Source: an uncultured Pseudomonadales bacterium (GTDB lineage Bacteria; Patescibacteriota; Microgenomatia; UBA1400; UBA12108). From it: 24,423 bases of DNA. This document shows, one piece after another, positions 3 to 24,423 of this stretch. A program made the position numbers and the translations under genes. The notes under the pieces are model-generated. The model did no database searches, had not been told where the DNA came from, and was given only the letters and a program-made list of their open reading frames with translations. The number at the start of each line of letters is the position of its first letter. Position 1 is the first letter of the stretch. Where the stretch lies: NCBI GenBank assembly GCA_964493295.1, contig CAZBML010000001.1, positions 4,078-28,500 of the forward strand. Reading direction: 5' to 3'.

Positions 3-620
3 ACATTTGAGGCAAGTGGTGAGGGGAAAGTGGTCGTGGTGCCAGACCAGGCAATGATCAATCTAGGAGTAGAGGAGGAGGGGACCAACCTCAAGCAAGT
101 GCAAGAAGCTGTAAACAAAAAGATGGCAGGGCTTGGCAAGAGTTTGCGCGATCTTGGGGTAGAGGAAAAGGATATCAAAACGACTGGGTACAACTACTAT
201 CCAGACTACCAGTACAAAAATCGCTACCGGGCTCATGCTAGCGTACAAGTCATAGTGCGAGAAATCGAGAATGTTTCCCCAGTCATGGACCTGATTGCTA
301 CCCTAGGCCTAGACAATGTGTCTGGCCCCACATTTGGGTTATCGGATGAACTGATGAACAAAACAGTGAAAGAAGCTAGGGCTCTCGCGATAGAAAAAGC
401 TAAAGCCAAGGCCGAGGAGCTAGCAGATCTAGCAGGGATGAAGCTGGGTAGAATAGTAAATGTGGTCGAGGGCGGCAATAGATCGCCCAACTACATGTTG
501 CGCGACGCTGTTATGCCAATGGCTGGTGGCGGGGTAGCTATGGAGAAGACTGCAACACCAGTAGAGGTTGGCAGTAGCGATGTGGTTGTCGATGTGACAC
601 TCAGCTACGAAACACGCTAA
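3..620 (+). CDS. SIMPL domain (DUF541/BP26-like) protein, 5' truncated by window edge
   Basis: Frame is open back to base 3 (TFEASGEGKVVVVPDQA). Motifs G.G.V...PD.A, GPTFGLSD and A..A...A..KA..LA...G.KLG..V.V.E, with a V.V.VTLSY end, are typical of SIMPL proteins. Confidence 0.9.
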   Translation, partial: TFEASGEGKVVVVPDQAMINLGVEEEGTNLKQVQEAVNKKMAGLGKSLRDLGVEEKDIKTTGYNYYPDYQYKNRYRAHASVQVIVREIENVSPVMDLIATLGLDNVSGPTFGLSDELMNKTVKEARALAIEKAKAKAEELADLAGMKLGRIVNVVEGGNRSPNYMLRDAVMPMAGGGVAMEKTATPVEVGSSDVVVDVTLSYETR

Positions 621-625
621 GAGAT

Positions 626-695
626 AAACTCTAAACCATAAATACTAAACCCTAAATACTAAACCCTAAATACTAAACCCTAAACTCTAAACCAT
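626..695. repeat. Tandem heptamer array, 10 units (AAACTCT/AAACCAT/AAATACT/AAACCCT)
   Basis: Read directly: aaactct aaaccat (aaatact aaaccct)x3 aaactct aaaccat. Confidence 0.95.
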
Positions 696-712
696 AAAAA
701 ACTTGAAAGAAA

Positions 713-1078
713 CTAAATAGCCTTTGTGAGAATCGAACCAAATATTTTTCTGAGTTCGATACTTTCCTGGATTAGTTGTTTCCTACTTACCTCTAGGTTT
801 GAGGGTACTCCTTGGAATAACTTCAACCAGAACTCAGACTCCTTGCTTTCTTTGCGAGATATTTTTATCCTCATAAAGAAATCTTTTTTACTCAGACTCT
901 CGTTGGCTTCGATGTAGTTGGCGCCGACTGATCCACTTGATCTCAGAAGTTGGTTTGCATCATTTTGGTTAAGAATATTCTTGGGAACTGATCGGATGAA
1001 AGTGCGAACGTTTTGAGCAAAAAGAAATGTTCTATCTTCTAAATCATATTGTTTTTTGATTGGATTTTCTGTGATCAT
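713..1078 (-). CDS. Four-helix-bundle protein (TIGR02436 / 23S rRNA intervening-sequence protein family)
   Basis: YDLEDRTF.FA, QLLRSSGSVGANYIEA, KDF..RIKISRKE.KESEFWL and ELRKIFGSI are characteristic family motifs. Confidence 0.92.
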   Translation of the reverse strand: MITENPIKKQYDLEDRTFLFAQNVRTFIRSVPKNILNQNDANQLLRSSGSVGANYIEANESLSKKDFFMRIKISRKESKESEFWLKLFQGVPSNLEVSRKQLIQESIELRKIFGSILTKAI

Positions 1079-14044: not shown

Positions 14045-17000
14045 ATGGCCACAATCAGTGTAGATCAGTATAACGACGACGGGACGACTAGTAGAACTGC
14101 AGGGGAAGCACTGACCATAAATGGCGCCACCTTTACCCAGCGCACCGACACTAGATGGCACGCGACGGCGCCCGCCAGTATGACGGGTACTTACGGCGAT
14201 ATTCTCCCCAGTGCTACCCTAGGCGGCCGAATGGTGATTGACGCGACCGCTGTGCGCTGGCTCGCCTATGACAGCGGGAGTGGGAACGTGCCCGCGATCG
14301 GAACCGATATCACCCAGGCGGGCGTGAGTGCGAGTTATCTGCTGGGAGTTTATGCCTCGCTGACCTCGGCGCCCACGACGGTTGGTAATGCGATGCCGGC
14401 CACAGGATACCTCAAGTTTCGCGAGGTAACGGGAGCGTTTGTGAGCGGAGCGCTCACTGGGATTGGGGGCAGTGCAACTGGCGCGGATACTGCCGGGTGG
14501 ATAGAAGTTGTCATGGACAGCGCCGCTGGGACCGACATTAATATCCCTCGCCTGGGGGAGTTTGAGACGCGAGGCAAATGGTTTTACCTGGATAATACCG
14601 ACGGGACGACCGCCCAAGTCTTGCAGGTGCCAACTAATGGGGGAGGAGCCACTACTCACTCCCCAGGGGTGTGGATCGAAAAAGCCACCGCTAGCGCGGC
14701 TACTTATTCGCTATCCGGTAACACCGTGACCGTGACCCTAGCGAGCCACGGTTACTTTGTGGGTGACGACATTGATATCAACTTTACGAGCGGGGGAGTG
14801 TCTGGTGAGGACACCTACCATATCCTGACTGTCCCTACTTCATCGACCTTTACGGTAGCCAAAACGGCTAGCAACACCAGTGGCAACTGTAGTGTCTCAC
14901 AATTTGAGTACTATCCGTCCTCGGCCGGGGCCACGACCGGGTGGAGTCAATCTCACATCGGGAGCCCGGGACTGGACGGAGCGAATGATGATCTGCGCCA
15001 AAAATTTGTCAAAAGTATCGGGACGGGACAGATGCAAATAGGGGAAAATGCCACTCAGTCCGCCACTTATACGACTGCATCAATTGCCGGGACTTATACC
15101 TGGACGGCCAACGTCGTGACGGTGACCTCGACGGCGCACGGTCTGCGGGTAGGGGAGCAAGTATATCTCGACTTTACCAGTGGGGGCGCGACGCCCGACG
15201 GGGTCTATACGATTGTGACCAACGCGGCCAATACTTTTACTGTGGCACTAAGCGGATCTGGTACCGCTGGTAATGTGACTGTCTGGGCAAGGAGCACCGT
15301 AACTTTTACGGCGCACGGCTATGCCATTGGCAACAAAGTACACCTCAATTGGACGAGTGGGGGAATAAGTACTGATGGAATTTATCTGGTGGAGACGGTG
15401 CCCACGGCCAATACTTTTACCATTAATACCTATACTAATTCAGGAACCGGGGGAAATGTGAGTATTGAGATGACGATCGGGTATATCCCCCCCGCTGGAC
15501 TAAGAACCAGGGTACCCAATATCTTCTTGAGGCAGTGTGCAACCGGCAGTCGGGCCACCAACGCGGCGCCCAATGCCACGATTACCACGCGACCGGAGTT
15601 TATTACAACGAGCGCGGGGGCAATTGATATTGAGTACACCTACGGCGATTGGTACTTTAACTTCCTCCAGCCGTACTCGGTCCACCTGAATCACGTGGCC
15701 TCGTTTGACTCGATCTTGATCCAGGAGTGCGCAACAGCGCTCGACATTAATGACACCAGCTTGTCGATGTATGGTTCCCTCGATATTAATACACTCAACT
15801 GCGCGTCAAATTTTGCGGGGGGAACGATTGCAAATTGCACTTTGGTGCGGGGAAATGCTCCAGGGTCTAGCGATCATGGTATTGTGATTACTTCGTGTAA
15901 AGATTTGGATCTAGTGAATGTAAAGGGGGGTATCCTCCAGTTTGCCCGCAGTACCGGGTACTCGTTTGTGATTACCAGCTGTAATAATGTAAGTCTAAGC
16001 AGGTGTGTGAGCACCAACTCGACGACGATCTCACTCGTGACCTCGAAAGACATTACGATTAGCGATCTTAACTGGGTAGATCGGTATATGGGGATGACCA
16101 ATGCCACGGCGTCCTCCTATTGTGTGACCATTGGGGCAGGGATAGTAAACACGGTGATTGATGGCATTACTTTTGGGTACGGCGGGATAGTGAGCGACGT
16201 CCACCCGTATGCGGGACTGGTGTCTTTTACGGCGACGGTCAATACCACGATTCGTAATGCCGGTAGTCGCAGTAGCATGCTGAGTGGAGGGAGTATCCCC
16301 CTGTGGAGGATGGGTATTTTGTTTGTGACGGGAGGGAATAACGATACGGTCAAAATCCAGCGGATTTACATCGAGAGTTTGACGACGCGCGCGGGGATTT
16401 TGACCCAACTTAATACCGATACCGGCATCACCATGGAGTCGGTGTTTAACTATCGGTATACCACGGCGGCGGGTGTGGCAACCGATTACACTGTGACACC
16501 TTTATTTCTCAATGCAACTCACAAGGGGGTTGGGGCGGCGCTCAATAGTGTTAGTCCGCAAGTTTCGGTCTATGGTACTCACTGGATGGATCTCTTTACA
16601 AGTGACACTACAGGTAGGGTGGTAGCGATCATGAATGAACCGACATCCGCCACGGTGAACTACAGTACTCTCACGATTGCTGGGCTTGGAGGTTTTACGT
16701 CGGCTGGTTCACTATCTCTGCAATCGGTTGGTGATGAGTATATCCTTGAGTGTCCGTACTGGATCTTGGGACATACAGGACTGAGCAATACCACAGCGAC
16801 GGTAACGGGAACCAACGTGACTTATGTGAGTGGACCCGATTATGGCAACCATGATATTTACTACCAAATCGATACGGGGAGCGGGTGGAATGGGAGCTGG
16901 AAAGACTTGAGTGGTACAAATTTAAGTGGCGAGTCGGTGAGTCCAACCGGATTTCGACTTAAGTTTAGGGTGGTATGTGATAATGCGGCCACCACCAACG

Positions 17001-17548
17001 CAATTTCTTTTATTCGTATAGATACTACTACTAGCGCCACTGCGCAGGCAGAAAATCTCTATCCACTTGACTTGGCTAGCGTGACGATCAACAACCCCGT
17101 GATTGGTTCGAGCTATGAGGTCTACAACCTTGATACCCAGACTCAACTACTAAGCGGGGTGATTACCAGTGATCCTCAGACAGTATCTGTCTTGGCATCG
17201 GCTAACCAAACACTACGGGTTCGACTTCGACGATCTAAAGGAATTTTACTTTATACAGCTCAAACCGCTAATTTTGCGATCGGCAATATCTTGGCAGGGG
17301 TGACGAGTGGGGCGACCGCATTGATAGCTAATGATAGTGATAACGGAACGTCGGGAAGTTTGACGCTCGAAAATATTGTGGGCATATTTCAGGATGGGGA
17401 GACGATTGTGGATGATGGGGGAGGCAGTGCGACTACAAGCGGAGTGGTAGGGGGTAAATATCTACCATTTGAATCAAATGCGGTAGTGAGTGAATTGCTA
17501 ACTGCCAGTGTCTATGCCAGTCAAGTAGTAGACTCAATCGCGGTCTAA
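14045..17548 (+). CDS. Giant Thr/Ser/Gly-rich modular protein A (probable beta-helix core, phage-structural-like modules, no signal peptide)
   Basis: 1167-aa ORF; three H-G-x-x-x-G-D/E/N-x-V small beta modules; Asn/Thr-rich beta-helix-like repeats (ITSCKDLDL, ITSCNNVSL); C-terminus paralogous to 19576..24423. Confidence 0.85.
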   Translation: MATISVDQYNDDGTTSRTAGEALTINGATFTQRTDTRWHATAPASMTGTYGDILPSATLGGRMVIDATAVRWLAYDSGSGNVPAIGTDITQAGVSASYLLGVYASLTSAPTTVGNAMPATGYLKFREVTGAFVSGALTGIGGSATGADTAGWIEVVMDSAAGTDINIPRLGEFETRGKWFYLDNTDGTTAQVLQVPTNGGGATTHSPGVWIEKATASAATYSLSGNTVTVTLASHGYFVGDDIDINFTSGGVSGEDTYHILTVPTSSTFTVAKTASNTSGNCSVSQFEYYPSSAGATTGWSQSHIGSPGLDGANDDLRQKFVKSIGTGQMQIGENATQSATYTTASIAGTYTWTANVVTVTSTAHGLRVGEQVYLDFTSGGATPDGVYTIVTNAANTFTVALSGSGTAGNVTVWARSTVTFTAHGYAIGNKVHLNWTSGGISTDGIYLVETVPTANTFTINTYTNSGTGGNVSIEMTIGYIPPAGLRTRVPNIFLRQCATGSRATNAAPNATITTRPEFITTSAGAIDIEYTYGDWYFNFLQPYSVHLNHVASFDSILIQECATALDINDTSLSMYGSLDINTLNCASNFAGGTIANCTLVRGNAPGSSDHGIVITSCKDLDLVNVKGGILQFARSTGYSFVITSCNNVSLSRCVSTNSTTISLVTSKDITISDLNWVDRYMGMTNATASSYCVTIGAGIVNTVIDGITFGYGGIVSDVHPYAGLVSFTATVNTTIRNAGSRSSMLSGGSIPLWRMGILFVTGGNNDTVKIQRIYIESLTTRAGILTQLNTDTGITMESVFNYRYTTAAGVATDYTVTPLFLNATHKGVGAALNSVSPQVSVYGTHWMDLFTSDTTGRVVAIMNEPTSATVNYSTLTIAGLGGFTSAGSLSLQSVGDEYILECPYWILGHTGLSNTTATVTGTNVTYVSGPDYGNHDIYYQIDTGSGWNGSWKDLSGTNLSGESVSPTGFRLKFRVVCDNAATTNAISFIRIDTTTSATAQAENLYPLDLASVTINNPVIGSSYEVYNLDTQTQLLSGVITSDPQTVSVLASANQTLRVRLRRSKGILLYTAQTANFAIGNILAGVTSGATALIANDSDNGTSGSLTLENIVGIFQDGETIVDDGGGSATTSGVVGGKYLPFESNAVVSELLTASVYASQVVDSIAV

Positions 17549-17556
17549 TTGCTTGG

Positions 17557-17970
17557 TTAAAGTTGGCTCTGGAGGAAGTCTTTGCCGTGCTTGGACATGT
17601 TCATGAGAAAGGTAACTTTGTGGACAAGATCACTCAAACTCAGATTGCTTTTGACGATATATTCTCCCGCTCCCAAGGAATATCCTCGATCGATGTCTTT
17701 GTCAGTCTCTAAGTTGCTTGCGATCACGACCGGGATGCTTTTCCATGTTTCGTGTGCTTTGATTTCGGAGAGTACATCAAAGCCACTCTTGTGGGGAAGA
17801 AGAATATCGAGGAGGATGACTTGAGGGATATTGGTTTTGAGGATTTTTAGAGCCTCGAGCCCGTCTCCTGCAATTGTGACCTTGAATCCAACCGAGAGGA
17901 ACTTGTCACGCATAGTGCTAGCGAGGAGTGGATCGTCTTCTACAATGAGGAGATGTGGTTTTTTGGTCAT
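17557..17970 (-). CDS. Single-domain response regulator (receiver only)
   Basis: MTKKPHLLIVEDD, DGLEAL, PQVILLDILLP..SGFDVL, IPVVIASN, GA.EYIVK. The ATG at 17970 lies 4 nt after the kinase stop; the track start at 18048 is an overlap artefact. Confidence 0.95.
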   Translation of the reverse strand: MTKKPHLLIVEDDPLLASTMRDKFLSVGFKVTIAGDGLEALKILKTNIPQVILLDILLPHKSGFDVLSEIKAHETWKSIPVVIASNLETDKDIDRGYSLGAGEYIVKSNLSLSDLVHKVTFLMNMSKHGKDFLQSQL

Positions 17971-17974
17971 ATGA

Positions 17975-19579
17975 TTATGATACCTCATTTGGCAGGGAGA
18001 GGGTAAAGATGGTACCATCCTTGTGACTGGTATAGGTAATACTACCATTGAGTTTGGTCATAATTAATCTGGCTAAATAGAGACCTAATCCATTGCCGTC
18101 GGGGTGATGTAGGCGAGCGTTGTCGCCGCGATAAAAACGTGTAAAGAGATGTGAGCTGTTTTCACTTGGTATCCCGATCCCTAAGTTTTTAATGCTAATT
18201 TGTAACTGCTTTAAACGGAGATAGATCGTGATTTCGATAGGTGTATTGGGATCGGAGTACTTGAGTGCGTTGCCAATGACAACTAGGAGCGCTTCTTTGA
18301 GTAAAAGTGGGTCAGTTGTGACTAGAGTTGTTGCTGGAACTTTCCAGTCCAGTTTGATTGAGCGTCTTCGCAAATAACCAGTTTTACTCTCATGTACAAC
18401 GGGAAGAATTAGTTCTCGTAGGGAGATTGATTTGAGGTGTGGAATAAGTGAGCCGGCTTCCAGACGTGAAATATTTAGTAGCTGTGAAGTGAGTGTGATA
18501 AGGCGCAAGGTAGTGGAGTGAATTTTGCGTAGGGTGGTGCGAACTTTGAGATGGTTTTGGGACGGCTCGACATCGAGCAGAGATTCACTCAACCATCGGA
18601 TAGCAGTCAAGGGTGAGCGGATTTGGTGGGAGGCCAGACTGACAAACTCATCTTTTAATTTGTCGATAGATTCAAGGGTTTCGATCTGTTTGACGATTAA
18701 GACCTGGCCTATTTTGTACGCTAAAGCAAAGGAGATTGCGGTAATGCTCAAGATGGTGAGTAGGCTCACATACAATGAGTTGCGTACAGCAGTATAGATC
18801 TGATATTGGGGAGTTCCTACCGCAATAAAAGTGCTACGACTATCGTCGAGTGCCGTAAAAGCATAGAGGCGCTCAACTTGATCGATACCGACTTTGAGGG
18901 TTTGACCGCTTCCTTGAGTCAGGATTTCTTGGACGAGTGGATCGTTTGCAAAATTTTTCCCCAACGCTTCTGGAGTTTGGGGACTACGGGCCAAGACAGT
19001 CCCATCACGATCTAAAATATTGATCACTAAACTACTGGTTTTGTTTAGATCATTGACAAATGTGCTGACCCAGTCCAGGGACAAGGAAGCATAGACTAAT
19101 TCGGTGGAAGAAATGGGGTAGGCAAAATTGATGACAGCTCCACTTGGTTTAGTTTGATAATAAGCTCCGACAGTAAATGACCCACTGCTAAGTGTTTCGG
19201 CGATTAGTTTTTCATGAGGGGTATTTTGCTGAGCTTTGGCCAGGTTGGCGGCACAGCGTACGTGACCACTACTGTCGACGATACCAAAATTTTCATAGCG
19301 GATATAGCTCGAAAGCAATGTAGCGAGAAAAATGGAACAATTTTCTGGGCTTTGGCTGGTTAGTGACGTACTGGCGGCGATCGCGATGAGTAGTTGTCGT
19401 ACACCTTCGGTGATTTGCTTGTGTTGGGCGGCTGTTAAGCGAGCAATTTCCGATAATCTAGTCAGCTCGTTGTTTTTTTTGATTTGTAGATTTTGGTAGT
19501 GCGAAAATCCAGTGTAGAAAATAAAGGGGATGGTAGTGATGATAACGAGCAAATAAAGTCGAGAACGAAGGTTTCTCAT
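17975..19579 (-). CDS. Sensor histidine kinase (TM, Cache-like periplasmic sensor, TM, HisKA, HATPase_c)
   Basis: H-box EFVSLASHQIRSPL, N-box GNALKYS, G1 NLGIGIP, F-box LFTRFYRG, G2 GNGLGLYL; sensor has Cache-like GIVDSSGHV, ILDRDGTVLARSP and GIDQVERLYAF. Confidence 0.95.
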   Translation of the reverse strand: MRNLRSRLYLLVIITTIPFIFYTGFSHYQNLQIKKNNELTRLSEIARLTAAQHKQITEGVRQLLIAIAASTSLTSQSPENCSIFLATLLSSYIRYENFGIVDSSGHVRCAANLAKAQQNTPHEKLIAETLSSGSFTVGAYYQTKPSGAVINFAYPISSTELVYASLSLDWVSTFVNDLNKTSSLVINILDRDGTVLARSPQTPEALGKNFANDPLVQEILTQGSGQTLKVGIDQVERLYAFTALDDSRSTFIAVGTPQYQIYTAVRNSLYVSLLTILSITAISFALAYKIGQVLIVKQIETLESIDKLKDEFVSLASHQIRSPLTAIRWLSESLLDVEPSQNHLKVRTTLRKIHSTTLRLITLTSQLLNISRLEAGSLIPHLKSISLRELILPVVHESKTGYLRRRSIKLDWKVPATTLVTTDPLLLKEALLVVIGNALKYSDPNTPIEITIYLRLKQLQISIKNLGIGIPSENSSHLFTRFYRGDNARLHHPDGNGLGLYLARLIMTKLNGSITYTSHKDGTIFTLSLPNEVS

Positions 19580-22500
19580 AACGCGATTTGATCAGGCGAT
19601 TGGCTGACGTAAACTGCTACTCCCGATGAGTTGACGGTGGCTTGTGTTTCGAAGGGAATGTATTTGGGGCTCGCAGAGGCTTTGCGAATACGAATCATGA
19701 TGTTGTAATCGGCAACGTAGGGTACATTGGAGATCGTTACCGTATTGCTACTGGCTATGCCACTACCCAACAGGGTACTACTAGCTAGATTGTAAACATA
19801 GTATGTACTGCCCGAGACTACATTGGTTAAGACGATCGAGACGGTCTGGCCAGCGTAGTCGCCGGGGCCGACTGTTTGCGTGTAGATTTCTAGGCCGTCG
19901 ATATAAGAGTTAAAGGAGGGGAAGAGCGCGAATTGAGTGTTGGTGGCGACGTTGGTGGCGCGAGTGGTGGTGTTACCTGAGTCACGGATAATTTCGCCGG
20001 GGAAGAAAGTACCAGTGACGTTGGAGAGAATGATAGTACCGGTTGTGCCTAAATCATAATCTTCATCCACTACAGCCGTCGCACCGGATGTTTGGCCGAG
20101 GATGGTCTCCCCGACCACAAAACTACTGGACTGACTGGTGTAGAGCATACCGGGACGAGCCGTGAGCTTGAGTTTGAGATAAAAACCATCGGTCGTGTTG
20201 ACCGATTCGGCGGCCAAGTTGGCGGGGGTGGCGGTTTGATAAGCTGAGTAACCACTGCCTTTGTCGAGCGAGTACTCGACTAGGAGTGACTCGAGGATAT
20301 CGGTGTTTGAGCCCAGGTCGAGACCACTTTTTTTCATGGTTTTGTCGCGGAAACCAGAGACGCCAAAAATCTTGTAGGGCCAAGTGATCTCGATAGAGTC
20401 GCCCGCGGTGCGCATGTACAGACGACCCGAGTTGGAGAAAGCGGGTGACCCAGAAATAATCTCGTAGGGTGGAGTGTCAGAAGAACTGGCGTTGAAACGC
20501 AGTGATAATTCTCCAGTATTTGGTGAGGTATAGAGCTCGTGGAACATGGTGTCATAGATAGTAGTAAAGGCAACGCCCATTCCGTCTGTCGTGGTGCCGA
20601 TCGCATAAGTAGTAGCAGTGGTTAAGGGCTCGGAGTTGGCACCGCTGACCCCTTTCATAATCACCCCGAGGGCAGAATTGGTGGCAGAGGTGTAGATCGG
20701 CCAGTCATAGTTGTCAAAGTTGATGTTGGAGAGGGTGACACCGGAAGCGTTGTTGGCAAAGGTAAAAGGAGTCCAAGTGGCGATGTAGTTGCGCCAGCTT
20801 TTAACGGTAAAGTCGTCAAAAACATTGTCGTTACTCAAGTTTTGCACGTTGATGAGGGAGGCGGTATGACCTGCATAAGTAAAGTTGACGCTGTGATCAA
20901 AGAAGCTATTGTTAGAGGAGCCGGTCAAGGTGAGGTAAGCACCGGATAAACCACCCGCGCCAGCCTGAGAAACAGAAGTAATGCGATTGCTTGAGGAGTT
21001 GGAGAGTGAGATGGGGGCTATTGATCCAGGCATGACAGCGTAGCCCACGCGGTTGGTGTCTGAGGGGGTAAAGCCACTGGTTGTACCCAAGTAAATCTCT
21101 GTATAGTGGGTGCCGGTGGGGGTGGCGGCTAGGGTGAGCTCGATACCCTGGTTGTGATCGTTGCCACCAGTTGATCTACCCCAAGCATAGGCGGCCGTGA
21201 GCTCGTGGCTACCTTGGGCGAGACTAGCGCCAAAGATAATCCCGGTAGAAATTGGCCCCTCGGCAGTAAAAGGCTGGGCGGGCGTGATAGTTAAAACGGT
21301 CGTTGCTACGTTGGTGACCAAGTAAGTGCCATCGTTGCTAGTCGTACCAGAAACGACAATCACGTCATTGGCCACAAAACCATCGGTTGTAAAGGAACCC
21401 GAACTGGCGGTGATAGTGTTTACAGTGCTGGCGGTTGCGAACGTCAGGGTACGTCCACCACTACCAGTTGCGAGTTTGGTGGTGGTATTGGTGACAGGAG
21501 CCAAGGCAGTACTGCCCAAGTTGACCATGGCGGTTGCGGCGTAGATATAAGCACCTTGAGTGTTTAACTGGATGGTAAAGGTGTGAGTGGTGCTAGTTGA
21601 GGTAAAGTTGAGCGAGATCCTCTGCCATTTGCCGGTTGCGGTGAATGACTGGGTGACAGGCGAAGTAGTGTTGACGGCGATCTCTCCGCTGACCGTGGTT
21701 TGGTGCGGGTAGGGATCGGTCATGACATAAACCGAGAAAGTGTAGGCCGTGCTAGTTTTGAGGTTGGCGAGCGTTTGGACGGCTTTGCTACCTGGGCCTA
21801 CCGACAAGAGACGATCGGCCAGACCGGTGGGGGCCGCGTTGCTCGAGAAGGCAATATCGAGAGGGGCGACACGAGCGGCCGCGGTTGGAGTCAGGTTGGT
21901 TTTGACCCAGTTGGCATGGGTAAAGTCGTCTGATTGAGTCAAGTAGTTGAAGGCAGGGGTGGGGAGGGCGACAACGGGGACCTCGACTTCGGGGCTTTCG
22001 GTGCCGTGCATAAAAGTGATGGTTTGACCGGAAAAAGTAGCCAGGAAGGGAGTATCCACCGTAATTGAAGTGGCAGAGTCCACGGAGACTACCGTGGTGG
22101 GCCAGGCGATGCCGGGACCATAAACACACATGCCAGCGCAGGCTCCGAGCGTCAAGGTCTGGCTGACAAAAGTCGAGGTGTTGACAGCGGAGACCGTGAT
22201 TTGCCAGGGAGTGTCGATTGAGACTACGGTGGCACTCGCCCCGACACCGGTACCGGCGATTTGGAGACCAGGCGTGACGTTGCCGGATAAAAAGTTGGCG
22301 GCGGAACCCTCGGGGATGCGGATTTTGTTTTCGCCACTAGTACCTTTGCAGTTGGCGATGGTACCAAGGCCGGTATTAAAGGATCCCGAGGGGATAGTGA
22401 GCGTAGTACCCCCCGCGGTACCGGCGGCGTTCGTAATACCGGAGAGCGCGGAGTCGCATTTGAGTAGACGATAGTAGTAGGTGGTGTCGTTGCTTGGGGC

Positions 22501-24423
22501 TTGGCCATTTAACGTGCCAGAAGTGAGGGCGGCGCTAGTCGTGAGATTGGTGTGATTGGTCGTGAGGGTAATGACTGTGGCGGTGAGCGAGAGGATCATG
22601 TATGTGCCGTTGTTGCTAGAAAACCCAGAGGCCACGATATTGGCGCCGATCACAAAGCCGTCAGTGATAAAAGAGCCCGAGCTAGCCGTGATGGTGCGAC
22701 CAGCCTGGTTGAACGTAATGGTTCTGCCACCCGCGGCTGTGGCGGTTGCCACATAACCGTTGGTGTAGGCAACGACAGTGTTGGTCGGCGAGTAGAAAAT
22801 GCGCGAACTACTATCCCGCGTAAAGCCAGGAGTAGTCCCGCGGAAAATTGTATAGGCTATGGTAGTGGAGGTGGGGTCGCGGCGCACCCAGTTGAGAGTG
22901 ACAGCGCGGGGACCGGAGTTGATCGCCGAGAAAGCTTGGGGGAACCATTTACTGCCGAGGAAAGGAGTTGCGGAGTAGGTGCGCGACTCGTAGTAGTGAG
23001 TCCGGTCGGTCCAGTCGCGGAAAGCTCTAGTTTTGATGTAATATTTAGTATCGTCAACGAGCTTGGCGCCGAGCGTGGGGTTGTTGCCGAGGCGATAAGC
23101 CGAGGCCACGTTTTTGTAGCCATTGAACATGTCCTCGGACCAAGTGATATTGGAGATGGTGTTGCCGCTACTGACGCCGAGGAAAAAAGGGGCGAGGCCG
23201 TAGCTTTCCATACCAGTGATCGTGTTGTTGTTGAACAAGGTAGTTAAACTAAGAGCCGCTTGGAAGTTTTTGCTAATATTTAAACCGTAAAAGCGAATAT
23301 TCGTCCAAGTAGAGCCCTCGGTGTTGGTGACGTAGAGAGCGGCACCTGGGGCGGCGACCGTCGAGCCGGTTTGGTTGGCGTGGAGCGCTAGGGGCTGGCC
23401 GACCGCGACGTTTAGATCCGAGATCGTGGCGTCGTTGATGTAGCTCCAGGCATTGGTCGAGGAGTTGCCGTAGCGAGTGTCGCGAGTAAACCAGCCATTA
23501 CTCCCGATCGTGGCCGAGGCCGTGTAGTACCTACGCACCGGTTCGAGGGCAAAGCCAACACTCGAGATGGTGAGGCCATAACACTCGGTGATCACGGGCG
23601 GGAGAGAGAAAGCGCAGTTGGTGAGGGAGACACTTTCGGCTTGGGTAAAGGTGTTGTACGACTCGTCGAATAAACAGATACTGGCAGTGAGCGAGCCACC
23701 GGCCGTCATGACCATGTTGGCTCCCACAAGGCGAGAAGATGTCTGGATATTGGCGGGCACCGCAGAAGTAAACATGATGTTGGGACAGCGGACTTTGGCA
23801 CCTGTTGGGACTTTGTTGCCGTTGACCCCGTCGCCAAACTGAACAGTGTTGGTTAGTTGGGAGACGTAGGGGTTGAAACAAGTGAGGGAGACATCGGTCG
23901 GGGTACCGGTCCTGACTGTCCAGGTAGCGCCAGAATCGGTTGAAGTCATGGCATAACTGCGCAAGTTACCAGAGCTTGAAACTGCTACGAGGGTGGTGCC
24001 ATTGGCGACTACGCTAGTCCAGCTCCCGATCTGAGTACCAGTCAAAGTGGTGGTCGTCCAACTGGCACCGTTCGTAGATCTAGCCGTTTGGGTCGAGTTG
24101 GTCGTAGAGACTACCACAAAGTTGGTGCCGTCCCAGGCTACGCCACGACTAGTCGAGTTGGGGAGGGCGCCACCGGCACTAAAGGCACCGGTTGTGGGAT
24201 CCGCTTTGCTTTGATTACCGGTAGAGGAGCCAGAGATCGCCATCCAGATACTCCCGTTGTAAATGAGTGCCATGTAGGTGGCGCTAGTTAAAGTGGCTCC
24301 CGCTGTCCAGGTGCCAGCGCCATCGGCGTCGTAGTTGCTGGCAGTACCGGTCCCGACCGCGACGTAGCGAGAGCCTCCGTAGGCCACGGCATTCCAGATC
24401 TGCGAAGTGGCCATGGTGGCGGC
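19576..24423 (-). CDS. Giant modular protein B (paralog of A; propeller-like repeats, beta-helix, FN3-like and CBM-like inserts), 5' truncated
   Basis: Frame is open to the window edge (gcc gcc acc atg). Contains WNAVAYGGSRYVAVG/WTSVVANGTTLVAVSS repeats, FN3-like VTLNW...YTIFRG...TTYYYR and NYLTQSDDF...W. Its stop overlaps the kinase start (ATGA). Confidence 0.88.
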   Translation of the reverse strand, partial: AATMATSQIWNAVAYGGSRYVAVGTGTASNYDADGAGTWTAGATLTSATYMALIYNGSIWMAISGSSTGNQSKADPTTGAFSAGGALPNSTSRGVAWDGTNFVVVSTTNSTQTARSTNGASWTTTTLTGTQIGSWTSVVANGTTLVAVSSSGNLRSYAMTSTDSGATWTVRTGTPTDVSLTCFNPYVSQLTNTVQFGDGVNGNKVPTGAKVRCPNIMFTSAVPANIQTSSRLVGANMVMTAGGSLTASICLFDESYNTFTQAESVSLTNCAFSLPPVITECYGLTISSVGFALEPVRRYYTASATIGSNGWFTRDTRYGNSSTNAWSYINDATISDLNVAVGQPLALHANQTGSTVAAPGAALYVTNTEGSTWTNIRFYGLNISKNFQAALSLTTLFNNNTITGMESYGLAPFFLGVSSGNTISNITWSEDMFNGYKNVASAYRLGNNPTLGAKLVDDTKYYIKTRAFRDWTDRTHYYESRTYSATPFLGSKWFPQAFSAINSGPRAVTLNWVRRDPTSTTIAYTIFRGTTPGFTRDSSSRIFYSPTNTVVAYTNGYVATATAAGGRTITFNQAGRTITASSGSFITDGFVIGANIVASGFSSNNGTYMILSLTATVITLTTNHTNLTTSAALTSGTLNGQAPSNDTTYYYRLLKCDSALSGITNAAGTAGGTTLTIPSGSFNTGLGTIANCKGTSGENKIRIPEGSAANFLSGNVTPGLQIAGTGVGASATVVSIDTPWQITVSAVNTSTFVSQTLTLGACAGMCVYGPGIAWPTTVVSVDSATSITVDTPFLATFSGQTITFMHGTESPEVEVPVVALPTPAFNYLTQSDDFTHANWVKTNLTPTAAARVAPLDIAFSSNAAPTGLADRLLSVGPGSKAVQTLANLKTSTAYTFSVYVMTDPYPHQTTVSGEIAVNTTSPVTQSFTATGKWQRISLNFTSTSTTHTFTIQLNTQGAYIYAATAMVNLGSTALAPVTNTTTKLATGSGGRTLTFATASTVNTITASSGSFTTDGFVANDVIVVSGTTSNDGTYLVTNVATTVLTITPAQPFTAEGPISTGIIFGASLAQGSHELTAAYAWGRSTGGNDHNQGIELTLAATPTGTHYTEIYLGTTSGFTPSDTNRVGYAVMPGSIAPISLSNSSSNRITSVSQAGAGGLSGAYLTLTGSSNNSFFDHSVNFTYAGHTASLINVQNLSNDNVFDDFTVKSWRNYIATWTPFTFANNASGVTLSNINFDNYDWPIYTSATNSALGVIMKGVSGANSEPLTTATTYAIGTTTDGMGVAFTTIYDTMFHELYTSPNTGELSLRFNASSSDTPPYEIISGSPAFSNSGRLYMRTAGDSIEITWPYKIFGVSGFRDKTMKKSGLDLGSNTDILESLLVEYSLDKGSGYSAYQTATPANLAAESVNTTDGFYLKLKLTARPGMLYTSQSSSFVVGETILGQTSGATAVVDEDYDLGTTGTIILSNVTGTFFPGEIIRDSGNTTTRATNVATNTQFALFPSFNSYIDGLEIYTQTVGPGDYAGQTVSIVLTNVVSGSTYYVYNLASSTLLGSGIASSNTVTISNVPYVADYNIMIRIRKASASPKYIPFETQATVNSSGVAVYVSQSPDQIAL

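Follow-up and report, generated by a model that had tools for sequence, protein, structure and literature searches.

The DNA window analyzed here is a 24,423-nucleotide stretch of contig CAZBML010000001.1 from an uncultured bacterium of the Patescibacteriota, and the feature of interest in it is protein B, encoded on the minus strand. An earlier note, made from the letters of the window, had proposed that domains are nested within domains inside a beta-helix of this protein. We now find it likely that protein B belongs to a family of giant Patescibacteria proteins in which a tailspike-like helix carries a hierarchically nested cassette, whose modules have been gained or lost among relatives and whose function we infer from likeness to known folds. 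The helix is split, an FN3-like domain inside the insert is split in turn, and modules that are present in some homologues are absent from others. In the arrangement that we propose, one helix loop would carry a cassette of ~700 residues, whose outer segments (residues 455-490 and 1073-1143) would probably form one circularly permuted FN3-like sandwich, here called FN3'. Between these segments would stand, in series, a true FN3, a carbohydrate-binding module (CBM) of the CBM4/9 type and an M1 barrel; of the loops of the FN3, E-F would hold a further M1 barrel and F-G an M2 domain, and this M2 domain would hold a second M2 in its beta1-beta2 loop. The nesting would then be five levels deep (helix, FN3', FN3, outer M2, inner M2) if FN3' is real, and four levels deep otherwise.

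The features are listed in the order of the protein, with window coordinates, strand and amino acids (aa) of protein B; paralogue A, used for comparison, comes last.

19576..24423, minus strand: open reading frame of protein B (P0001), 1615 aa plus stop, open at its 5' end at the contig end
23089..23820, minus strand: beta-helix, N-terminal half, aa 202-445, ending in GNTISNITW and a loop common with A (hhalign to A 479-~694, VIA-align)
22954..23061, minus strand: L1 piece, aa 455-490, read as strands F' and G' (DSSP strands 461-468 and 477-485)
22756..22935, minus strand: FN3 piece 1, strands A-E, aa 497-556
22498..22746, minus strand: M1a, small beta module (GGRTITF...NNGTY), aa 560-642, in the E-F loop of the FN3
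22438..22497, minus strand: FN3 piece 2, strand F (TTYYYRLLKCD), aa 643-662
22348..22428, minus strand: outer M2, N-terminal piece, aa 666-692, which starts the F-G loop insert of the FN3 (predicted local distance difference test score, pLDDT, 94-97)
22153..22347, minus strand: inner M2, complete, aa 693-757, within the outer copy's beta1-beta2 loop
22006..22152, minus strand: outer M2, C-terminal piece, aa 758-806
21964..22005, minus strand: FN3 piece 3, strand G (GTESPEVEV), aa 807-820
21499..21960, minus strand: CBM4/9-type beta-sandwich, aa 822-975
21220..21477, minus strand: M1b, second M1 module (GGRTLTF...NDGTY), aa 983-1068, in series after the CBM
20995..21207, minus strand: D2 piece, aa 1073-1143, which would supply strands A'-E' to the permuted FN3-like domain
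20524..20994, minus strand: beta-helix, C-terminal half, aa 1144-1300, resuming at SNRITSVSQ (hhalign to A 701-853)
14045..17548, plus strand: paralogue A (P0002), beta-helix uninterrupted at the homologous point (about A 685-695)

All motifs that the earlier note had quoted lie in the reading frame of protein B in the order it gave, spanning 20965-23166 of the window: GNTISNITW at aa 420-428, VTLNW at 508, YTIFRGTTPGF at 524, GGRTITF at 565, PSNDTTYYYR at 643, GTAGGTTLTI at 668, GTSGENKIRI at 694, GPGIAWPTT... at 769, TESPEVEV at 808, NYLTQSDDF at 826, GGRTLTF at 989 and SNRITSVSQ at 1145.

One helix is interrupted by about 700 residues

The helix repeats of protein B had been described as stopping at GNTISNITW and resuming at SNRITSVSQ, at a place where A is continuous, and alignment of family profiles with hhalign bears this out. 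B 202-428 aligned with A 479-677 at 98.6% (E 5e-16) and B 1144-1300 with A 701-853 at 91% (E 1e-6), while the two halves of B, once joined, were collinear with A 479-853 at 99.3% (E 1.8e-20); plain BLAST confined the similarity of A and B to their C-terminal thirds. Protein B has an insert of ~700 residues at this point (about aa 446-1143), where paralogue A has ~10. Alignment with A runs on for the first ~17 residues past GNTISNITW, which brings the insert closer to 700 aa than to the 650 first estimated, so that its existence stands and its exact size is revised.

We built an AlphaFold2 model of aa 180-1300 on a 72-sequence alignment (pLDDT 87.2; predicted template modeling score, pTM, 0.85) and compared it with 48,161 solved chains by VIA-align. 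Right-handed beta-helices accounted for 48 of the top 50 chains, with Z 16-25, a root-mean-square deviation (rmsd) of ~3-4 Å and 270-320 aligned residues. The best match, K5A lyase (2x3h_A; Z 25.3, rmsd 3.5 Å, 315 aligned), covered model residues 34..1121; phi29 gp12 (3gq7_A) followed with Z 23.0 at 2.9 Å over 292 residues, and several tailspikes, PL6 and GH28 chains reached Z of about 20-22 at about 3-4 Å over 270-300 residues. Since the aligned residues exceed the N-terminal half alone, both halves appear to stack as one continuous helix in the model. Continuity across the insert was one of the points on which the nested reading had been staked beforehand, and solved helices do superpose on both halves. 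By superposition of the model, protein B has a right-handed parallel beta-helix of the pectate-lyase-like or tailspike fold. Sequence searches gave no match for the beta-helix or the C-terminal part in Pfam, and none for aa 180-1300 in the PDB at E up to 1. Foldseek with the 1121-residue model returned long, poor superpositions (rmsd 20-40 Å) except for CBM16, CBM61 and a porphyran-binding CBM, and we therefore relied on VIA-align.

An FN3-like domain is contiguous in relatives and split in protein B

Within the insert, the FN3-like domain had been proposed to be split by two modules, and this is what structures and homologues both show. A separate AlphaFold2 model of aa 495-825 (pLDDT 94.8, pTM 0.89) matched FN3 domains in all 50 of its top 50 VIA-align hits (Z 9.3-11.4, rmsd 1.8-3.5, 80-99 aligned), among them 4yfe_B (Z 11.4, rmsd 2.2, 88 aligned) and 4n68_A (Z 11.2, 90 of 99). 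These matches stretch over model residues 1 to ~325, yet they are a contiguous run of ~90 residues in the solved chain, so that whole FN3 domains superpose on three separated pieces. A hidden Markov model (HMM) of the joined pieces (501-556, 643-662 and 806-820) matches the minimal homologues contiguously, covering 4-88 of 91 positions in P0087. In a MAFFT alignment, clean indels fall exactly at M1a (560-642) and at the M2 pair (666-806). The strand-B tryptophan W512 and the strand-F tyrosines Y649-651 (alignment W333 and Y470-472) are at least 90% conserved across the 72 sequences.

We speak of nested insertion where a host domain is contiguous in relatives and split in the protein at hand, and where the inserted modules also occur on their own. 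The FN3 host is contiguous in relatives and is split at a clean indel in protein B, and profile searches place both inserted modules, M1 and M2, on their own elsewhere.

The inserted modules recur elsewhere, and M2 probably encloses a copy of its own type

M1a is absent at a clean indel in P0034, P0038, P0087 and others. The second M1 module, which had been placed after the CBM, does lie there in series, and the profiles of M1a and M1b align at 99.7% (E 8e-27), as one domain type. M1b is confined to the clade of protein B, and the M1 tree has too little resolution to decide if a duplication inside the protein gave rise to M1a and M1b. Among homologues, M1 also stands in series on the N- and C-terminal sides of the helix (P0070, P0083) and forms arrays (P0065, P0066, P0069).

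The proposal that an M2-type module encloses a copy of its own type is also supported. The inner M2, at full length, aligned with the joined outer pieces at 97.4% (E 1.3e-11) and was collinear through the junction, which hhalign places in the loop that joins beta1 to beta2 in the outer copy; strand order by DSSP is identical in both copies. Un-nested M2 units are found in P0138, an unrelated protein of 1064 aa with ~13 tandem units of ~68 aa (…ALAPGMLVSGTGIPAGTTIKSVDSATQITLS…), and this array indicates that M2 belongs to a widespread repeat family that has no Pfam model.

A language-model neighbor of M1 is a viral E1_FCCH-like cluster (0.87), which we take as a lead only; atlas neighbors are mostly viral. 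The corresponding Pfam family, PF16190 (E1_FCCH-like phage barrel), matched 0 of 60 M1 copies. The endosialidase beta-barrel (PF12195) is a small phage barrel that is itself an inserted domain in endosialidase; it gave no match on protein B, M1 or M2. PHROG matches of the two modules were limited to a weak one of M1b to phrog_1236 ('head protein') and one of M2 to phrog_17105. A PDB search with the 60-copy M1 profile gave E above 0.3 only, and an ESM-Atlas shape search with the 331-residue model gave template modeling (TM) scores of 0.26-0.35, mostly to viral entries, and did not identify the folds of M1 and M2. We also considered mobile DNA or inteins as the origin of the modules and dropped the idea: the copies are 59-63% identical as DNA, they are modeled as folded beta domains, and no matching Pfam signatures were found.

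The insert contains a CBM4/9-type domain

The CBM-like domain had been recognized from its sequence, and both profile and structure agree with that assignment. CBM_4_9 (PF02018) scores 29.9 bits against a gathering cut-off of 25.9 when aa 820-980 are scanned alone, and 22.5 bits, below the cut-off, in the scan of the whole protein. The domain superposes on 2xom_A with Z 15.6 and rmsd 2.2 over 129 of 145 residues; CBM4-2 (2y64_A, Z 14.6) and CBM16 (3oea_A, Z 14.4) are close behind, and CBM61, 4-2, 16 and 22 together span Z 13-15.6.

The flanking segments may form a permuted FN3-like domain

L1 and D2, which flank the inner domains, are kept in all members of the family. With hhalign, L1 (aa 455-488) aligned with the F-G strands of the FN3 profile (columns 61-93) at 95% (E 3e-8) and D2 (aa 1105-1129) with its C-C' strands (columns 25-49) at 91% (E 1e-6); in the permuted order D2-L1 the two were collinear with columns 25-93 at 97.3% (E 1.9e-11). 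By DSSP, D2 has five strands and L1 has two. When L1 and D2 were submitted to complex prediction, the pair scored 0.52 against 0.00 for the best control, in a range (0.60 or under) that holds only 7 of 80 solved complexes plus both of the mismatched pairs that passed. The mark itself was reached by 58 of those 80 and by 2 of 110 mismatched pairs. The runs agreed in at least 70% of contacts, with a partner pLDDT of 61-63, and we regard this prediction as weak support for the pairing.

Together, these findings incline us, with moderate confidence, to read L1 and D2 as parts of a single FN3-like domain in which a circular permutation has opened the E-F loop. Such a domain would be attached to the helix at that loop, its natural termini being bridged by the FN3, the CBM and M1b, and judged by its profiles it looks like a level of nesting that the earlier note had missed. 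Another clue comes from the baseplate wedge protein gp46 of Pseudomonas phage Pa193 (9b45; PMC11456595), of which residues 176-440 fall on L1, the CBM and D2 in one rigid superposition (model 279..951, P0001 458-1130; 209 aligned, Z 16, rmsd 3.7, 15% identity). The match is one of fold only and to a protein with no beta-helix host, for which FN3, M1 and M2 modules did not come to light here; it suggests, as a hint, a two-domain unit of the phage baseplate type at the core of the cassette.

Loop content varies among relatives

We typed 74 family members that carry both helix halves with the module HMMs and found the following classes.

Minimal class: L1-FN3-CBM-D2, 394-440 aa long, in some 10 proteins
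One M1 in the E-F loop: minimal plus one M1, in P0048, P0073 and P0080
Two M1 in the E-F loop: minimal plus two M1, in some 12 proteins
Many M1 in the E-F loop: an array of about 10 copies, seen in P0069 (3159 aa)
Propeller-like cassette in the E-F loop: 285-394 aa, in P0036:897-1181, P0040:899-1292 and P0067 (about 896-1285)
M2 pair only, in the F-G loop: minimal plus outer and inner M2, about 12 proteins
M1, M2 and a post-CBM M1: the architecture of protein B, in its clade of 29 proteins including B

The FN3 region falls into discrete size classes of about 100-114, 182-198, 244-249, 275-294 and 331-346 aa. The propeller-like cassettes are homologous to the N-terminal repeats of protein B (1-184) at 30-33% identity, and the one in P0040 appears to hold a further inserted segment. 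In P0065 and P0066, 16 and 14 matched M1 stretches lie between helix halves 1800-2000 aa apart. Pfam found nothing above cut-off on the extra cassettes of P0036, P0040, P0056, P0077 and P0107.

On a quick maximum-likelihood tree of the helix halves only, the clade of protein B falls within the proteins that have M2 only and away from the clade with M1 only. The minimum number of changes by parsimony is 4 for the E-F loop M1, 4 for the F-G loop M2, 8 for E-F content coded in three states and 1 for the post-CBM M1; the tree has some long branches, and such counts do not distinguish gains from losses. That modules were repeatedly gained or lost at two FN3 loops supports the earlier suggestion that such proteins diversify by insertion. 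That suggestion had set insertion apart from tandem duplication, and here it needs amending: some E-F loops hold two to about 10 M1 copies, so that tandem duplication also acts, but within a loop that is already opened. Mechanistically, M1 and M2 would be compact, self-folding barrels with adjacent termini that are plugged into tolerant FN3 loops by in-frame recombination, and once inside a loop they could multiply in tandem.

Weighing the alternatives

Several points weigh against the nested reading as we have put it. The Pfam fn3 family (PF00041) does not match the FN3 of protein B even at E up to 10, and we therefore call the domain FN3-like by its fold; no Pfam family matches M1 or M2 either, 60 M1 copies giving scattered matches at chance level. 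Three-dimensional contacts in protein B were deduced from alignment ranges, DSSP and confidence values rather than read from coordinates or predicted aligned errors. Packing of the pieces into one fold is indicated indirectly, by alignment ranges, for the helix and the FN3; for the outer M2 it is suggested by profiles and DSSP, and for L1 with D2 by these and the weak complex prediction. Outer and inner M2 always occur together in the homologues seen, none of which has just one M2 in the F-G loop as an intermediate would, and the change counts leave gain and loss unseparated. For the flanking domain, neither L1 nor D2 has a Pfam match, some of the CBM structure matches begin at model residues 289-297, and L1 may pack on the CBM instead of on D2. 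Finally, no signal peptide and no transmembrane or hydrophobic helix was found in full-length homologues of protein B or in the A family. A surface location of protein B is thus an assumption, and the label 'adhesin' is putative only.

Of the other ways to explain these data, one would line up the domains as beads on a string and put the splits down to chance motif resemblance in low-complexity sequence rich in Thr, Ser and Gly. The biased composition, the shortness of the pieces (20 aa for the F strand, 14 aa for the G strand) and the missing fn3 match speak for it, but FN3 structures superpose on model residues 1..325 with 83-99 residues aligned, the three-piece HMM runs contiguously through minimal homologues, clean indels lie exactly at the module borders, and the beta-helix matches cover both halves; we consider it very improbable. 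Still harder to credit is an error of assembly or gene calling, such as a chimeric contig or collapsed repeats, even though the gene runs off the end of its contig in a 127-contig bin that is 72% complete. The full architecture is intact, with open frames, in ~28 orthologues at 56-78% identity from independent assemblies, and the DNA of the module copies shows no more than 59-63% identity, which makes repeat collapse unlikely; the nesting, on this comparison of sequences, is not an assembly artefact. More serious, and in our judgment still distinctly unlikely, is the idea that the M2 pair is a tandem duplicate with exchanged first strands, a domain swap that would leave FN3 and the helix as the only true hosts. 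It fits the constant company of the two copies and the tandem arrays of M2 elsewhere (P0138). On the other hand, inserting a complete unit would yield just the observed order beta1-beta1-core-core, the inner copy is contiguous and complete, hhalign sets the junction in the outer beta1-beta2 loop, and the N-terminal outer piece is confidently modeled (pLDDT 94-97).

A further alternative concerns what protein B is for rather than how it is built: instead of a cellular adhesin it could be part of a virion or tailocin, such as the tailspike or an appendage on the baseplate of a phage that is integrated or defective, with variable loops that serve host-range switching. We think this unlikely, while giving it some weight. 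Its best fold matches are phage tailspikes, depolymerases and the Pa193 wedge gp46, it lacks a signal peptide, it shares the N-terminus MATITVD... with A, and M1 has both a weak head-protein match in PHROG and mostly viral atlas neighbors. However, 50,697 phage records gave no match at the DNA or protein level (megablast with the whole window, tblastn with protein B), its neighbors include the leucyl-tRNA synthetase LeuRS, PHROG matches of nearby genes are without assigned phage function, and its homologues sit on Patescibacteria contigs of up to 949 kb. The genes around protein B look cellular. 

On our main reading, we infer by analogy a glycan-binding display on a tailspike-like scaffold: from a helix that binds or depolymerizes glycans, the cassette would project a glycan-binding module together with variable modules that act as spacers or bind in their turn, and loop content would diversify surface or target recognition.

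Relation to known nested proteins

Nested insertion as such is already known, and deep cases have been described in RTX adhesins and in the Si3 domain of cyanobacterial RNA polymerase. In the RTX adhesins AhLap of Aeromonas hydrophila and FrhA of Vibrio cholerae, split Ig-like domains hold ligand-binding domains out (PMC12077191, PMC10865825), and in AhLap a beta-solenoid hosts a vWFA domain that itself hosts an insert, for three levels of nesting (PMC12077191). As in protein B, the break in a beta-sandwich lets a CBM or another module with adjacent termini bud out. Unlike these adhesins, protein B has a tailspike-type right-handed helix as its host, an FN3 into which two loops admit inserts, a module that encloses one of its own kind and a clamp domain that appears circularly permuted. 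No RTX repeats, hemolysin-type Pfam match or type I secretion signal were detected on protein B, and we do not class it with the RTX adhesins, although its cassette would work much as their split domains do.

Domain insertions are mostly one level deep, and insertable domains are reported to be compact and self-folding, with adjacent termini; Si3 of the beta' subunit reaches up to six levels of nested hybrid-motif domains (PMC13114784). Si3 resembles protein B in that a small beta domain is recursively inserted into its own copies, so that a deep A1-B1-C-B2-A2 order adds several hundred residues at one host loop. It differs in being an unrelated protein of another fold and function, whereas protein B nests at least four different folds and its content varies among close relatives. 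Phage tailspikes, depolymerases and pectate-lyase-like enzymes (2x3h, 3gq7, CBA120 TSP2 5w6p, AlgG 4nk8) share the helix of protein B (Z 20-25, rmsd ~3 Å, 270-315 aligned) at 8-15% sequence identity. Loop excursions are usual in the right-handed beta-helix fold, the 'dorsal fin' of P22 being one example, but an excursion of 700 residues and six to seven domains is far larger than the usual loop domain. Protein B differs from the known cases in the tailspike-type host, the FN3 opened at two loops, the module within its own kind, a clamp that is probably permuted, and a rich series of loop contents; a literature search found no paper describing the family.

A single loop of a tailspike-like helix would here carry four to five levels of domains, and relatives form a graded natural series from a bare FN3 through one, two or about 10 barrels to a propeller-like cassette or an M2 pair. 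This series makes it testable which FN3 loops tolerate domains, whether the modules fold autonomously and whether ligand specificity shifts with loop content. Patescibacteria gain a large uncatalogued protein family, most parts of which have no Pfam model, and the CBM and the variable modules become candidates for contact with host or environmental glycans. Going further, we tentatively suggest a picture that we hold with less than even confidence, in which the cassette is clamped by the permuted FN3 and the E-F loop of the inner FN3 is a general socket, where lineages swap entire sets of domains: no barrel, one, two or ~10, or a propeller-like cassette of ~390 residues. If so, the E-F socket would be a natural plug-and-play site for retargeting a host-attachment or glycan-degrading protein of episymbiotic Patescibacteria, and nature's own measure of the load that a loop of an FN3 will bear.

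Gene, genome and neighborhood

The source genome comprises 865 kb in 127 contigs and is ~72% complete, and the window ends where its contig, C1, ends. Full-length homologues have ~2270 aa, and protein B aligns with them from their residue ~650 onward; the contig break thus leaves protein B without ~650 N-terminal residues. The ATG at 24414 is internal, since homologues extend ~650 aa further. That additional part contains more propeller-like repeats (weak BNR/EPTP signals) and also has an M2-like domain at about residue 486-530. The named homologues come from metagenome genomes of Patescibacteria.

Two reading frames between A and B (window 17557-19579, minus strand) match PHROG families of unknown function and, in addition, one labeled 'kinase' (phrog_10912, E 7e-47). 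Several homologues of paralogue A carry precomputed Pfam matches to PF12195, while P0002 itself has no Pfam match. The A and B families have a common N-terminus, MATI[ST]VD..., seen at the start of A (14045-14070) and in P0003, P0005, P0087 and P0070, which may be a docking or export motif. Homologues of the two proteins agree in the length of their longest contig, 43,227 for P0006/P0202, 109,330 for P0009/P0206 and 31,675 for P0045/P0204, and the pairing of A and B genes thus seems to be conserved in related genomes.

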